Part shown: positions 1,460-27,365 of the stretch, piece by piece | Layout: every line of letters starts with the position of its first letter | How positions within the stretch are numbered: position 1 is the first letter of the stretch | NCBI GenBank assembly: GCA_965213925.1 | Contig: OZ243927.1 | Coordinates: forward strand, 288,001 to 352,000 | Source: Trueperaceae bacterium | Lineage (GTDB): Bacteria; Deinococcota; Deinococci; Deinococcales; Trueperaceae | Direction: 5' to 3' | Length of the DNA: 64,000 nt | The notes under the pieces: generated by a model | The model's input: the letters and a program-made list of their open reading frames with translations, nothing else | What the model was told of the DNA's origin: nothing | Databases searched by the model: none | Program-made: the position numbers and the translations under genes

Positions 1460-1570
1460 GTTCGGTTTGGCTCCAGCAAGCCGTTTGAACGCCCCCAGCT
1501 TTAACTTCTTGACCTCACCCCACCTCACGCCCCACTGTGAGATGCGCGGGCTAATCTTGCAAAAGGTATA
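1460..1570 (-). mobile_element. Left-end remnant of an IS5-family (ISL2/IS702-like) element
   Basis: Minus strand begins TATACCTTTTGCAAG (IR-like), followed by the N-terminus MRWGEVKKLKLGAFKRLAGAKP, similar to IS702-type transposase starts; similarity is lost after about 22 codons. Confidence 0.45.
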
Positions 1571-1696
1571 ATGTACTAAAAACGTTCATAGACACGTGGT
1601 GTTTTGCAAAGTCCTCCGCGCGTAATCACCGTGTAGCGCAAAACCGTCATGGAACCGCTGCACCTGAAGTACTTTCGGGAGGAGTACACTCGAAGC

Positions 1697-2422
1697 GTGC
1701 GCGTGGCAATCATTGCTGACATCCAAGGAAACGCTGTAGCTCTGGAGCAGGTACTCCTTCATATGCGCCGGCTAGACATCGATGAAGTCGTGTGTTTGGG
1801 CGACGTCGCCTCCGGTCCCGAGCCGGGCGCGGTGCTCGAGCTTCTCCGTCTACACAGATGCCACACGGTGCTTGGGAACATGGACGCGGTTATCCTCGAG
1901 CCAAGGTCTTACACAGACCTTGGCGAAGCGGAACACAAGTACGCCGAGATGGACGTTTGGTGCCACGCGCAGCTCTCGGAAGTGGATAAAGCCTTTATGC
2001 ACTCGTTCGAACCGACCGTTTCGGTCGAGCTGGGCGGTGAAGTAACACTTCTCTGCTGTCACGGCTCGCCGCTCTCTTTTGACGACGTCATCGAGGTAAC
2101 GACGTCGGAAGACGAGCTGGCGCAGTACTTCCAGGGCATTGCGGCGCAGCTCCTGGCGACCGGGCATATGCACAATCCCATGCTGCGGCGTTACCGTGAC
2201 GCAACGCTATTCAACCCTGGCAGCGTGGGCTTTCCCAATCTGCGGGTCGCAGGCGAGAAGCGGCCTCTGGTAGCCTCTTACGTGGTCGTTCAGCGAGAGC
2301 GAGGCACGGTAGATGTCGCGTTCTACAGCGTTCCTTACGCTCCTGAGGTGTTCGCGGCGCAGGTCTTGCGAAGCGGCGTGCCCCATGTTGCCTGGTTCTT
2401 GAGCGAGTGGAGTCTTGAGTAG
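1697..2422 (+). CDS. Metallophosphoesterase (YfcE/calcineurin-like)
   Basis: Motifs ADIQGN, LGD, GNMD, CHGS, GHMH, NPGSVG; GTG at 1697 preferred over 1649. Confidence 0.85.
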   Translation: MRVAIIADIQGNAVALEQVLLHMRRLDIDEVVCLGDVASGPEPGAVLELLRLHRCHTVLGNMDAVILEPRSYTDLGEAEHKYAEMDVWCHAQLSEVDKAFMHSFEPTVSVELGGEVTLLCCHGSPLSFDDVIEVTTSEDELAQYFQGIAAQLLATGHMHNPMLRRYRDATLFNPGSVGFPNLRVAGEKRPLVASYVVVQRERGTVDVAFYSVPYAPEVFAAQVLRSGVPHVAWFLSEWSLE

Positions 2423-2734
2423 AACACCTCCTTCTATGCAAGCAAGACTTAGCGAAACGACAATTATTGGTTCGTCCGGTAAATCATGTGCAGGTTCCGA
2501 AATCGAGTTTTCGCGTTGCGAACGCAAGCCAACGGACCAATAAACGGTAGCGAACTTGCCGGAACCAAGTATGTCAAGAGCAAGGCCCTAGGGAAGGAAC
2601 TGAACCGATTGGAACGCTGTGAACTGGCGAGCTGTCAATTGGCGGGTTCGCAATCTGAGAGGGCGAATCTTCAGGGCTACTACGAGCTTATCGCGGTAGC
2701 TTCGTGATTGGCTTGAGCCGTGTGCGGTGAAAGT

Positions 2735-5170
2735 GTGCGCCGTGGTGCGCATTGAGTGAATTGCCAACGGAGTTGGCCGGGGTTCAGGGCAAACGACCCC
2801 GAGGCGGATGCCTAACCTGAGCTCGAAAGGAGGGAGGGGACAAGAGCATGGCATTAAAGCGGAGCGCAAAGGAAGACGTGTACGATGCGGCTCTGCAACG
2901 CCTGAATGATAAGGCTAAGACTGGATTGTTTGAACGCCAATAGCCAGCGGTGGTCACGCACACCCGTCGGTAGCACGTCTGTACACCGACGCCATCAGGA
3001 CATTTGGATTCAAGTTTCGTCCAAATGACGCTCTGCTTGATGGGCGATGAACAATGAGTTCATCCAAGGCTATGAGTGGCGAGCCTAAGTCGTTCTAGCA
3101 CGTTCCTCAGTGACGAAACACGGGATTGCCTAAGGGACGCGAGTCCTAAGGTAACGGAGGTCTCGTAGTAGTCGTGGGCGTCACGCCCCACCAGGGAGAG
3201 CGGGAGAGCCGTTCGCAGGGCGAAGGAGACCAGGTAATCATGATGGAAAGGAACTGTGAGGTACGCGAGATGCGAACCGCCGAAACGGTACTCACCATCC
3301 TACGTGAACGCGGCCAGCGTGGCCTGCCGGTTAAAAGGGTGTATCGCCTACTCTACCGGCCTGACCTCTACCTGCGCGCCTACGCCAAGCTCTACAAGAA
3401 CGAAGGCGCACTGACACCAGGTGCCTCGGACGAAACCGTGGACGGGATGTCCCTAGCGAAAATTGATACCATCATCGAGGCGCTACGCCAAGAGCGGTAT
3501 CGGTGGACGCCGGTACGACGCCGTTACATTCCCAAAAAGAATGGCAAGATGCGGCCTCTAGGGATGCCTTCCTGGTCGGACAAACTTCTTCAAGAAGTTA
3601 TCCGCTCCATCCTGGAAGCCTATTATGAACCGCGGTTCAGCGACCGTTCTCACGGCTTTCGACCGAAACGGGGATGCCACACAGCTTTGCGCAAAGTCAC
3701 CCAAGAGGGTCGAGGTACAAAGTGGTTTATCGAGGGAGATATCTGCTCGTGTTTCGACAAGATTAACTTCGATGTCTTGTTGAACATCTTGCAGAAGAGC
3801 TTCCACGACAACCGCTTCCTGCGGCTTATCAAGGGGCTGCTCGAAGCTGGCTACCTGGAGAACTGGACCTTTCACCAGACCTACAGCGGTGTGCCGCAAG
3901 GGTCGATTGTCGGTCCAATCCTCACCAACCTGGTTCTGGACAGGCTGGACAAGTTTGTCGAGCACGAACTGATACCAGCTTACACACGCGGCGAACGCCG
4001 CAAGACCTACCCCCCGTATGTCGCCATCGCCAAAGCCGCTCACGACGCTCGGAAAGCAGGGAACTGGGAGACCGCGCGGCAACTGAGCCAGCAGGCCCAG
4101 ACAATGCCGTCGCGCGACCCCGATGACCCGAACTTCCGGCGATTGTGGTACCAAAGGTATGCCGATGACTTTCTGCTGGGGCTGAAAGGGCCAAAAGACG
4201 AGGCCGTGGCTATCAAGCAAGAGATTGCCGCCTTCTTACGCGACGAACTCAAGCTTGAGCTTAGCGAGGATAAGACCCTGCTGACCCACGCGCGCACGCA
4301 GAAAGCGCGTTTCCTGGGCTATGAGGTCCACATTCTTCACGCTGACGATAAACACGACCACCGGGGACAACGCTGCATCAACGGCAGCGTCGGACTCCGG
4401 GTACCGTCGCACGTCATGAAAGCGCACTGCGCCAAGTACATGCGACGCGGCAAGCCCATTCACCTCCCACAAAGGCTCAGCAGCGATGCTTACAGCATCG
4501 TCAGCCAATATCAAGCGGAATACCGCGGGGTCGTGCAGTATTACCGCATGGCCTACAACCTCCACACGCTGGGCCGACTCAAGCGCGTCACAGAACTCTC
4601 GCTAGTGAAAACGCTGGCGAATAAGTTCAGGACGAGTTGCCAGAAAATCTATCGGCGCTACCGCACCACCATCGACCTCAAGGAGGGCAGCTATAAAGTC
4701 CTTCAAGTCAAAGTGGACCGTGGTCCTAAAAAGAAGCCACTCATCACCCACTTTGGCGGCATCCCGTTACGGTGGAACAAATGGGTAGCCTTGGACGACA
4801 ACCAGAACAGTAAGATTTGGAACGGGCGTAATGAAGTGGTGGACCGCCTTTTAGCGCAAAGCTGTGAGCTTTGTGGGTCGGTGGAGCACGTCGAAGTGCA
4901 TCACGTCCGAAAACTGGCAGACCTTGAACAAAGAGGGCGTAAGTCACGGCCCGAATGGATGCAAAGGATGTCGGCTCGCCGACGCAAGACGCTGGTGGTC
5001 TGCCTCACCTGCCACCAAGACATCCATAAAGGGCACTACCACGGGAAAGGACTTTCATGTTGAGATTACTGGAGAGCCCCGTGACACGGAAAGCGGTCAT
5101 GCGGGGTTCGGAGGGGGGATGTTGGAAAAGCGCTATCTTTGATAGGCAGCTCGCTGGCATCCTACCCTAC
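2735..5170 (+). mobile_element. Group IIA intron (Ll.LtrB-like, ML class), apparently intact
   Basis: 5' GTGCG at 2735; DV GAGCCCCGTGAC...GCGGGGTTC at 5074-5109; DVI ending CCTACCCTAC at 5170 with branch A at -7; encodes an RT/maturase. Confidence 0.92.
3270..5063 (+). CDS. ltrA: Group II intron reverse transcriptase/maturase with C-terminal HNH endonuclease
   Basis: RPLGMP, SHGFRP, WFIEGDI, GVPQG, RYADDF, domain X, and CELC..EVHH...CLTCH; ATG 3270 follows GAGGT. Confidence 0.95.
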   Translation: MRTAETVLTILRERGQRGLPVKRVYRLLYRPDLYLRAYAKLYKNEGALTPGASDETVDGMSLAKIDTIIEALRQERYRWTPVRRRYIPKKNGKMRPLGMPSWSDKLLQEVIRSILEAYYEPRFSDRSHGFRPKRGCHTALRKVTQEGRGTKWFIEGDICSCFDKINFDVLLNILQKSFHDNRFLRLIKGLLEAGYLENWTFHQTYSGVPQGSIVGPILTNLVLDRLDKFVEHELIPAYTRGERRKTYPPYVAIAKAAHDARKAGNWETARQLSQQAQTMPSRDPDDPNFRRLWYQRYADDFLLGLKGPKDEAVAIKQEIAAFLRDELKLELSEDKTLLTHARTQKARFLGYEVHILHADDKHDHRGQRCINGSVGLRVPSHVMKAHCAKYMRRGKPIHLPQRLSSDAYSIVSQYQAEYRGVVQYYRMAYNLHTLGRLKRVTELSLVKTLANKFRTSCQKIYRRYRTTIDLKEGSYKVLQVKVDRGPKKKPLITHFGGIPLRWNKWVALDDNQNSKIWNGRNEVVDRLLAQSCELCGSVEHVEVHHVRKLADLEQRGRKSRPEWMQRMSARRRKTLVVCLTCHQDIHKGHYHGKGLSC

Positions 5171-5289
5171 CGCACGCACGGCTCTTAGGGGGCGGGAGAC
5201 CGTCACCGGTCTCCCGCTACCCGACCTTGCGCACAGCCACCCCGTGCGGCGACACGGTAACTTCTATTGCCAATAGGTAAGCTCGTGGT

Positions 5290-6252
5290 GTGAGTAGACA
5301 GAAAGTCAGCCCCGTCCAAACCCTTGTCGCCTCCTTGCTGCGCGGCGCACTCAAGCTCGGCTTTGGTCCGCAGGCGCTTAGCTTAATGAGTCGCTCGATG
5401 AGCGCGCCTAAGCTCAAGCGGCGAGCCTTCGCCGACTATACACCGAACGAACACGACGTGGTCGTCTGCACCTACGCCAAGAGCGGCACCAACTGGATGC
5501 TCCAGATCGTCACGCAAGTCGCGCACCTAGGCGGGGGCGAATTCGAACACATCCACGACCTGGTTCCTTGGCCCGACCCGCCGATGCCAGGCCTCGTAGA
5601 CCTTAAAGAGCCCACTTGGGATAGCGCCCCGACGAAGCTTCGGGCCGTCAAGACGCACTGGGAAGCGCCCTTTGTCCCCTACAACCCGGATGCCCGTTAC
5701 ATCATTGTCGTCCGCGATCCTAAAGACGTGCTCGTATCGAGCTACCACTTCGCTGACAGCATCTTCTCGGGCGTGCGCGAGCACGTATCACCTGAGACTT
5801 GGACGCACCTATTCGCAAGAGGTCGGTCGCCCTTCGGTTCGTGGGCAGCGCACACAGCCAGCTTCTGGCCCTGGCGGGAGCGAACGAACGCACTTTTTGT
5901 CCGCTTCGAGGAGATGAAAGCCGACCTTGAGGGGACGGTGCGGCGTGTTGCCGAGTTCATGGATGTTCCTCTCACGGAAGTACAACTTGGGGAGGTCGTT
6001 CGCAAGAGCAGCTTCAACTACATGAAAGCCATCGACCACAAGTTCGCGCCGCCTTCGGCCGCACCAGGGCGCGAACAGGCCGTCATGTTGCGCAGCGGCG
6101 AGACGGGGCAGGCGAAAGCGTTCCTGAGCGCGGCGCAGCGGCGGGAGGTAGACCGGGCGATGGCGCGAGAAGTCGAGCTACTCGGCTCGGACTTCCCCTT
6201 TGAGCAGTTCTATGGGCGGCAACTTGAGCCGAAACAGGTGGGCGTCACTTAG
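5290..6252 (+). CDS. Sulfotransferase domain protein (Sulfotransfer_1)
   Basis: PAPS-binding TYAKSGTNW, KTH, RDPKDVLVS, FEEMK. Confidence 0.85.
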   Translation: MSRQKVSPVQTLVASLLRGALKLGFGPQALSLMSRSMSAPKLKRRAFADYTPNEHDVVVCTYAKSGTNWMLQIVTQVAHLGGGEFEHIHDLVPWPDPPMPGLVDLKEPTWDSAPTKLRAVKTHWEAPFVPYNPDARYIIVVRDPKDVLVSSYHFADSIFSGVREHVSPETWTHLFARGRSPFGSWAAHTASFWPWRERTNALFVRFEEMKADLEGTVRRVAEFMDVPLTEVQLGEVVRKSSFNYMKAIDHKFAPPSAAPGREQAVMLRSGETGQAKAFLSAAQRREVDRAMAREVELLGSDFPFEQFYGRQLEPKQVGVT

Positions 6253-6295
6253 AGGATTGGTAAGGGGCTAGCGTGTGCAGGTTTTGCAGGCGTTC

Positions 6296-6490
6296 TGCGA
6301 GAGTTGCGCGCAACTCTCGCAAAAGGTGTGATACCGTTTCCGGTTAAACACGAAACTTTACTCCGTTTCGTGTTTAACCCGAGCGGATGCGAGAATAAAG
6401 AGCTACGGATTCCGATGATTACGAAATCAACTCCGACTCCGTAGAAGCACGCAGTGTCGGAGTTTATGCAGTAATCAATCGGAATCCGTA
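6296..6490. repeat. Cluster of three palindromic/MITE-like elements
   Basis: Perfect 26-bp palindrome at 6296-6321; 15-bp-stem hairpin at 6342-6379; 87-bp element at 6404-6490 with 13-bp TIRs TACGGATTCCGAT, resembling Deinococcus small repeats. Confidence 0.75.
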
Positions 6491-6498
6491 TGACTCGC

Positions 6499-6708
6499 TT
6501 AAACGCTAATGGCGTTTACGTTGAAGTACGGATTGCCAAACCAATAGGTCGAGGTATAGGCTAGGTACGCGCCCAGTATGTAAATTGCGCCGTGCGCGAA
6601 GTTGAGAATGCCCAGCACGCCGAAAATGATACTGAGACCGCCCGCGATGATGAAGAGCAACATATCGACGTCTAAGCTGTTGAGGAGCGCCGCTACAACC
6701 GTGCTCAT
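6499..6708 (-). pseudogene. Branched-chain amino acid ABC permease (LivH-like), 3'-truncated
   Basis: GLSIIFGVLGILNFAHG motif; only 69 codons before a stop next to the repeat cluster. Confidence 0.75.
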
Positions 6709-26850: not shown

Positions 26851-27132
26851 AGTTGCCCCTTGGGCGCTCCTAAGAAGATGCAAGCAAACTAGGAGCACGG
26901 TGAAGTCGGCGTCTACTATACCCCGCGAAGCTTAGGGAAACTTAGAAGGTCTTTAGAACCGAGAACTTAGCTGACGTAAGCACCTTAGGCGTTTCGGAGC
27001 GCGAGAAAAGTGCCTGCAGGCTTGACGCCGCCCCGCTAAACACGCAACAATGGTCTAGTTGAGTTTTGAATGGAGCGTTTCTTAACGCGACTCAGCGCCT
27101 CGAGCCCCCTCTCTTAGCGAGCGTAGGTTCGA

Positions 27133-27257
27133 CTCATCCAGAGCAACCGAGGGACCTGACCCGACGACGTTGCAGCAACCCGCTTTCATCCAAGCGGGTG
27201 CTCCTTTCAGACCGGCGGGGCGAGGTCACGATGGCTTCACCCTTCTGGACAGATGAG
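27133..27257 (+). ncRNA. SAM-I (S-box) riboswitch
   Basis: P1 CTCATC...GATGAG, ATCCAGAG, GAGGGA..GACCC, GCAACC...GGTGC core; directly upstream of metF-metH. Confidence 0.9.
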
Positions 27258-27365
27258 AAGGCTCTTTTTCTGACCCTTCTTTATAAACTGGCTGCATTTT
27301 CATTAAGGAGGGTTTGCTATGGCATTTATTTCTATCCCTATGGACACAACTAAAGAGGTGCGTCT

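Follow-up and report, generated by a model that had tools for sequence, protein, structure and literature searches.

We analysed a stretch of 64,000 nucleotides (nt) from a Trueperaceae bacterium (contig OZ243927.1, positions 288,001 to 352,000 of the forward strand; hereafter the window, numbered from its first letter), in which a group II intron of 2436 nt at 2735-5170 lies inside domain V (DV) of another group II intron. We consider it highly probable that this inner element is a mobile LtrA-like intron (ML lineage, IIA-type) belonging to a clade with an inherited homing site in the DV of other introns. Its guide sequences pair with the interrupted DV at fixed positions and covary with the exon among relatives, the relatives have the insertion site in common, and the intron-encoded protein is intact. 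The parts of both introns described below are all on the forward strand.

The inner intron and the domain V that it splits

The inner intron starts with GTGCGCC (GTGCG at 2735), fitting the 5' consensus GUGYG, and ends in CCTACCCTAC (...CTAC at 5170), fitting the 3' consensus AY, as read from the sequence; the bulged A of its domain VI, within the same CCTACCCTAC, is at 5164, 7 nt from the 3' end. Its DV and domain VI are covered by the Rfam model RF00029 at 5072-5170 (46.0 bits; gathering threshold, 40), its first 505 nt can be aligned from nt 1 to 30 homologous introns, and no second copy of it was found within the 64-kb window. An uninterrupted open reading frame (ORF) in domain IV, 3240-5063, encodes a protein of 607 amino acids (aa) with reverse transcriptase (RT), maturase and HNH endonuclease domains (Pfam matches RVT_1, 3.8e-34; Intron_maturas2, 9.8e-11; AI2M-like_HNH, 8e-14), the HNH domain being of the AI2M/AI1M type. 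The best solved relative of this protein is LtrA, encoded by the Lactococcus lactis intron Ll.LtrB (5g2x_C, E-value 9.1e-116 over residues 31-597; runner-up in PDB, 5.6e-35), with which it can be aligned over the full length and shares the set of RT, maturase and HNH domains. The NCBIfam model TIGR04416 gave 255.4 bits, under its cutoff of 300. Assigned by the PDB match and the HNH type, the protein appears closest to those of the ML lineage, and we read the element as an apparently intact, mobile ML-lineage intron of IIA-type.

When the flanks of the inner intron are rejoined, they form a canonical DV of 34 nt with 14 of 14 template pairs, of which 2715-2734 supplies nt 1-20 (the AGC triad, stem strands, the GAAA loop and the 2 nt after it) and 5171-5184 supplies nt 21-34; the inner intron enters 2 nt past the loop on its 3' side. 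Of background 34-mers, just 0.3% have 11 or more template pairs, and the minimum free energy of the rebuilt hairpin is -22.3 kcal/mol, against -5.8 +/- 3.4 kcal/mol for background 42-mers. Domain VI of the outer intron and its predicted 3' end follow at 5188-5225 (...CTACCCGAC, read from the sequence), a segment that BLAST matches weakly to the 3' flanks of three related loci (L030, L016 and L023; these and the other L numbers designate relatives of the inner intron). The arrangement resembles a twintron, with the outer DV rebuilt by the flanks and domain VI downstream, yet the outer intron is incomplete, with no domains I-IV or 5' splice site recognised.

What is left of the outer RT ORF is a 31-codon frame at 2604-2696, comprising about the first 25 codons of such an ORF. 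It matches positions 1-25 of the 83 in Pfam RVT_N (E-value 4.4e-5; 24.2 bits, below the cutoff of 28.1) and is similar in tblastx to the starts of the outer-intron ORFs in L038, L003 and L023 (E-values 0.02-0.09). The space between the stop of the upstream phosphoesterase gene (1649-2422) and the inner intron is about 310 nt, and a search of 1500-6500 at E-values up to 10 gave no Rfam match to domains I-IV (D1-D4) of the outer intron, nor to those of the inner one. Because of this missing match, the short space and the 25-codon piece of RVT_N, we conclude that the inner intron sits in the DV of a remnant, without recognisable domains I-III, which has lost its 5' domains and ORF. Local alignment and BLAST of 2423-2734 against the outer introns of six loci found similarity in the DV half alone, with nothing beyond DV in L023 and L025; since the similarity is confined to this half, the class of the outer intron is not assignable from nucleotides.

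Guide sequences and their covariation with the exon

Exon-binding site 2 (EBS2) of the inner intron, CGCACAC at 2957-2963, forms seven of seven Watson-Crick pairs with intron-binding site 2 (IBS2), GTGTGCG at 2720-2726. EBS1, AGTTTCG at 3013-3019, forms six of seven pairs with IBS1, TGAAAGT at 2728-2734, with a G.G mismatch at exon position -2 and a G.U pair at -7. A single unpaired nt (2727) separates IBS2 from IBS1, and the IBS region as a whole (2720-2734) is nt 6-20 of the outer DV. EBS2 and EBS1 lie about 225 and 280 nt into the intron, the delta position (3012) is directly 5' of EBS1, and EBS1 itself lies in the 11-nt loop of a hairpin at 3001-3027 with the strands CATTTGGA (3001-3008) and TCCAAATG (3020-3027). 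Ll.LtrB presumably has a like layout, in the placement of EBS2 and EBS1, the one-nt gap between IBS2 and IBS1 and the delta position 5' of EBS1.

An earlier sequence-only reading of the window had proposed both guides, with the complete EBS2 pairing and the one mismatch and one wobble in EBS1, and its coordinates and motifs proved correct to the base. It had further taken GAAACT, the ideal site of the window EBS1, to be a common DV variant, and this agrees with the RF00029 consensus, in which the GAAA of the loop is followed by lower-case 'cu'.

A bare 7-mer match is weak evidence by itself, since a 7-mer complementary to exon positions -20 to -1 arises in 1389 of 5000 (28%) mononucleotide shuffles of 2735-3239, where CGCACAC is the sole real 7-mer of this kind. 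The strength comes from position and covariation, which were tested on the relatives because the match alone is not rare. With fixed alignment columns and 27 distinct intron/exon combinations, the EBS1 columns made 158 of 189 possible pairs with their own exons, against 137.9 +/- 4.2 with permuted exons, and the EBS2 columns made 130 of 189, against 111.1 +/- 3.6; none of 10000 permutations reached either value. Counted position by position in 28 distinct combinations, EBS1 positions 1-6 (the core, 3013-3018) were paired in 17-28, and EBS2 positions 1-4 (2957-2960) in 21-24, with two to five standard pair types. Relatives with other targets (L027, L028, L031 and L044) carry a compensating EBS1, such as CGCGTTT against the exon AAATGCG in L027, AGTCTCG against CGAGATT in L044 and GGCTTTG against TGAAGCT in L028. 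Exon +1 is paired by the delta position in 13 of the 22 distinct combinations, while in the window the two are A and C. Such a delta pairing, in place of EBS3, is the IIA-type mode of recognising the 3' exon.

The comparative fold, limited to about nt 190-330 of the inner intron, was made by RNAalifold with 26 non-redundant sequences. It predicted the hairpin 3001-3008/3020-3027 with EBS1 in the loop, exactly where the sequence-only reading had placed it, and for every one of its eight pairs between 1 and 13 sequences had compensatory changes that altered both partners. The consensus fold has just the 5' part of EBS2 in a loop, and the position of EBS2 therefore rests on the EBS/IBS covariation.

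Target sites among relatives

Relatives were collected by a protein-seeded scan of one genome per species, the window's own genome not being among them, and 55 loci were obtained, in which full-length protein matches were 61-77% identical. The ribozyme was aligned from intron nt 1 in 30 of the 55, and the 3' end was located in 37. Forty-two loci were informative on the target (both junctions in 23, the 5' junction only in 6 and the 3' junction only in 13; the flank of L012 was too short to judge), and the intron was in a split DV in 36 of them. Across the insertion, 22 of the 23 loci with both junctions fold as DV. Of the 26 5' junctions of DV type, 23 have a GNRA loop at exon positions -6 to -3, which puts the insertion 2 nt past the loop. 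The sequence-only reading had held the insertion to be dedicated homing into DV rather than a chance event, and the census and the permutations bear this out; the test that it had set for its own refutation, homologues mostly outside DV or EBSs folding elsewhere, was passed. The fixed 34-nt DV template gives too low a score to DVs of 35-37 nt (L001-L006), and the flanks were folded with RNAfold in its place; a family DV-DVI profile searched by nhmmer was rejected as a test for DV, since it is family-specific and matched the inner introns' own DVs in same-locus controls.

Besides that of the window, there are 23 distinct DV 5' halves among the relatives. Identical inner introns occur in different outer DVs of one genome (L007 versus L008-L010), which argues for independent insertions and not for one inherited site. 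RT-like ORFs of host introns are found upstream in 11 loci (24-50% identity) and RF02012 (D1-D4) matches in L023 and L025, and the host introns of L020 and L021, the only two to score well with the family DV-DVI profile, are ML-type. Judged from these sequences, the host introns are real and varied. Two further observations concern the hosts. In L008 and L018 the 5' and 3' DV halves are mismatched (9-10 of 14 template pairs) and come from different host DVs, the 5' half of L008, and not its 3' half, being common to L009/L010; this suggests recombination between inner copies residing in different host introns. The host DV 5' half of L005 closely resembles the own DV of an L060-type intron, itself homing into RT ORFs, which suggests chains of intron-in-intron parasitism.

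A tblastn search of the protein against plasmids gave at least 5000 records, and 16 of the best 40 were examined, with junctions placed by family end profiles. The DV site was common to six of the 16, with 53-58% protein identity: both junctions were seen in L057 (Microvirga), L061 (Priestia) and L065 (Bacillus thuringiensis), and the 3' junction only in L058 (Salmonella), L059 (Streptomyces) and L068 (Microvirga). The other plasmid loci differ in target. L066, on a plasmid of Streptomyces cadmiisoli, belongs to another subclade and has a second kind of DV-associated site, with only the last 2 nt of the host DV downstream of it. Sister ML introns in plasmids of Calothrix, Nostoc and Embleya (L060, L063 and L067) lie inside RT ORFs of other group II introns, L060/L063 in the motif ...DIEKC|FD... 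and L067 near the RT N-terminus. L056 (Ca. Megaera plasmid) is in a gene annotated as an HU-family DNA-binding protein, the same target as that of L028, and EBS1 of both is altered to match. L062 and L069 (Rhodococcus and Streptomyces plasmids) lie in sequence that, as read, encodes the C-terminal portion of IS5-type transposases, with a transposase of the IS5 family annotated immediately upstream, and the targets of L064, L070 and L071 were not assigned.

The protein tree has 37 rows, identical copies (L003, L008-L010 and L032), the broken ORFs of L065 and L068 and loci without an ORF of at least 520 aa being left out. All 24 DV rows are on one side of a branch with SH-aLRT 89, and on the other side is an actinobacterial clade with other targets. 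The DV label requires three changes on the tree, against a mean of 11.1 for shuffled labels, and none of 500 shuffles was as low. In this tree, rooted on L060/L063 by choice rather than by an established root, L027 and the introns of the HU gene branch within the DV side and look like later retargeting.

Three other explanations of these data were weighed. If the introns recognised the shape of a hairpin and not the sequence of DV, as IIC introns do at terminators, DVs would simply be the commonest hairpins of suitable shape and the EBS matches would be secondary. In DV targets the intron invariably interrupts a hairpin, at a set distance from the loop, and the targets of L031/L032 are DV-shaped without the AGC triad, their common flank extending only about 33 nt on the 5' side and 75 nt on the 3' side; we nevertheless hold this explanation to be unlikely. 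Both EBS1 and EBS2 covary with the exon sequence, and the targets that are not hairpins (L027, the HU gene of L028/L056, and L044) show a fully compensating EBS1 and no DV-like fold, the L027 junction having just three cross-pairs. The protein, moreover, has an endonuclease (En) domain and an LtrA-type architecture, as found in introns, such as Ll.LtrB, whose recognition of double-stranded DNA works through base pairing. The CGC triad of L031/L032 is also present in the target of L065, which is otherwise a typical DV, and CGC triads are known in bona fide introns.

It has even less to recommend it that insertion is promiscuous and the DV association a matter of survivorship, with the introns that persist being those in harmless places such as other introns. 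Group II introns are mostly found in intergenic or mobile DNA, according to one report (PMC12584367), and the sister ML introns described above are in genes of other mobile elements (RT ORFs and IS5-type transposases). Survivorship leaves unexplained, however, why a single nucleotide position is used in 23 of 26 DV junctions and why the EBSs are complementary to that exact site, and other neutral parts of host introns, for example domain IV, are unused in the DV-homing clade. A single chance insertion with coincidental EBS matches is scarcely credible: a 7-mer match is indeed frequent in shuffled sequence, but the matches here are at homologous EBS positions set by 30 relatives, and the relatives have the same target.

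Several points weigh against an inherited DV-homing site as we propose it. Among the 42 informative loci, four are outside DV (L027, L028, L044 and L035) and two are ambiguous (L029 and L045). The loci as a whole, those of the protein-seeded scan, limited to close relatives, and the 16 hand-picked plasmid matches, are not an exhaustive set. Junctions seen on the 5' or 3' side only were classified by eye, L003 and L033 appear to be inserted 3 nt after GAAA, 1 nt off the usual position, and the loop of L018 is TAAC. The L031/L032 targets, with CGC in place of AGC and short shared flanks, are only putative intron DVs. EBS2 positions 5-7, nearly invariant among homologues, pair in 15, 8 and 20 of the 28 combinations with only one or two pair types, and RNAalifold puts 2961-2964 in a local helix of 4 bp with little covariation; given the uneven pairing at these positions, the 7-bp EBS2 duplex is real for the window target and the family-level core is shorter (2957-2960/61). 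The pairing of the window copy is itself imperfect, and the mismatch at -2 together with the unpaired delta (A against C at exon +1) suggests an insertion into a near-cognate DV. L059, a 5'-truncated relative discussed below, does not fit a simple rule of immunity, its own DV being of canonical length (34 nt) with a 3' half that repeats that of its target. Finally, retrohoming, the order of splicing and immunity are all matters that we infer.

Proposed mechanism, self-avoidance and significance

In the proposed mechanism, EBS2 pairs with nt 6-12 of DV, on the 5' strand of its two stems, and EBS1 with nt 14-20, from the last nt of the stem through the GNRA tetraloop to the second nt after it. 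By analogy with Ll.LtrB, the intron would reverse-splice into the top strand between IBS1 and exon +1, a point 2 nt past the 3' end of the tetraloop, and by analogy with LtrA and Ll.LtrB the HNH domain would nick the bottom strand, with target-primed reverse transcription completing retrohoming. Members of the family differ in the guide nt that read variable DV positions: two in EBS1, facing the bases that follow the loop, and four at the start of EBS2, facing the inner stem. These differences may tune each member to one subtype of DV, and the conserved DV positions would keep the site available across many intron classes. Insertion would split the catalytic core of the host, which could fold only once the inner intron has spliced. 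On geometric grounds, with the whole IBS region 5' of an insertion point that is itself past the loop, IBS2 and IBS1 would have no pairing partner in the precursor RNA before the inner intron is transcribed.

The inner intron's own DV (5074-5109, 36 nt) is out of register with its own EBS sequences. None of GTGTGCG, TGAAAGT, GAAACT and GAAAGT occurs within it, as the sequence-only reading had observed for the target motifs, and in register it offers one of seven pairs to EBS2 and four of seven to EBS1, against seven and six at the real site. For 24 family members, the mean was 5.67 of 14 pairs with the own DV and 10.29 of 14 at the real site, and the own DV was the poorer in-register target in 23 and equal or better in one. 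Family DVs have 35-36 nt, with an extra nt in the 5' strand of the inner stem that shifts the conserved GUG relative to GAAA, and this shift of register makes the own DV a poor target. The invaded ML-type hosts (L021 and the host of L005, which is like the own DV of L060) have the canonical 34-nt register. The self-avoidance claimed in the sequence-only reading thus stands as a property of the sequence, and its function as a selected trait would be a further step: the extra nt is a plausible basis of immunity to self-insertion, and it is also simply a clade character. In L059 (3290-3425), the 3' half of the own DV is identical to that of the host DV that follows, which could be the product of gene conversion.

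Elsewhere in the window, a sulfotransferase gene (5290-6252) lies downstream of the outer remnant and is followed by a perfect 14-bp inverted repeat at 6295-6322, which is probably a terminator-like hairpin; a match of this repeat to a miRNA family was rejected as spurious. A SAM riboswitch was found at 27131-27259 on the forward strand (RF00162; 54.7 bits, gathering threshold 44.4).

The inner intron differs from Ll.LtrB in that its site is the DV of other introns and not a relaxase gene, and in the extra nt of its own DV. In Thermosynechococcus elongatus, F3 (TeI3) introns insert into domain IV of TeI4 introns, with identical inner copies in diverged outer introns (PMC2882425), a pattern matched here by L007-L010. 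There, the site lies between the first and the second ATG of the ORF. The introns concerned are of IIB/CL-type and lack an ORF, whereas the window intron is ORF-bearing and LtrA-like with its site in DV. M.a.I5, UA.I3, P.l.I2 and B.th.I3 home into the RT active-site motif of the ORFs of other introns (PMC2504315, PMC4424553); as in our case, related introns in distant hosts have a common target inside other group II introns, and the sister introns L060, L063 and L067 are likewise in RT ORFs. These introns are class-B-like, without an En domain and with a protein-coding target, while the clade described here has a catalytic hairpin as target and an HNH domain. In the psbF twintron of Euglena gracilis the inner intron is in DV (PMC8393795); it is a single organellar case of degenerate, ORF-less introns, with no lineage having an EBS-encoded DV site. 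IIC (class C) introns insert after terminator hairpins (PMC12584367) and resemble the present ones in having a target set relative to a stem-loop, but they use short EBS pairings with hairpin recognition and have no En domain, whereas both EBS1 and EBS2 covary with the target here. Inner introns are also located in domain I in Trichodesmium (PMC4649490) and in domain IV in plant and red-algal twintrons (PMC7049729, PMC4476101).

Homing into other group II introns is therefore already known at other sites, and a bacterial lineage homing into DV seems to be new, with real uncertainty about priority. No description of such a lineage was found in the literature searched, in which coverage of the key papers and of the curated intron database was incomplete. 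The abstract of Simon 2008 is said to mention 'several specialized lineages', and an earlier description is possible.

The DV-homing clade was seen in Cyanobacteriota, Pseudomonadota, Bacillota, Actinomycetota, Bacteroidota, Chloroflexota and Planctomycetota. We put forward, tentatively and with somewhat more doubt than confidence, the fuller view that this deep, cross-phylum LtrA-like clade is a dedicated hyperparasite of other group II introns, which silences its hosts until it is spliced out, is immune to itself by a shift of one nt and has not been described as such. In this view its guides read the best-conserved element of the ribozyme, the tetraloop and 5' strand of DV, and introns of almost any class would be potential hosts. 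DV is the catalytic heart and the most conserved sequence of group II introns; as a homing site it could not easily be mutated by the hosts, and it is present in every intron class and on plasmids across phyla. Annotation that relies on an intact DV misses outer introns of this kind, as stated for twintrons in earlier papers (PMC8919778, PMC4028801). If the proposal is true, nature here offers an instance of a ribozyme retroelement that parasitises a second one by way of its victim's active site, and a testable example of target choice, inactivation of a host element, sequential splicing and self-immunity. The natural EBS variants, tuned to DV subtypes, may also be usable to study or disable other group II introns.

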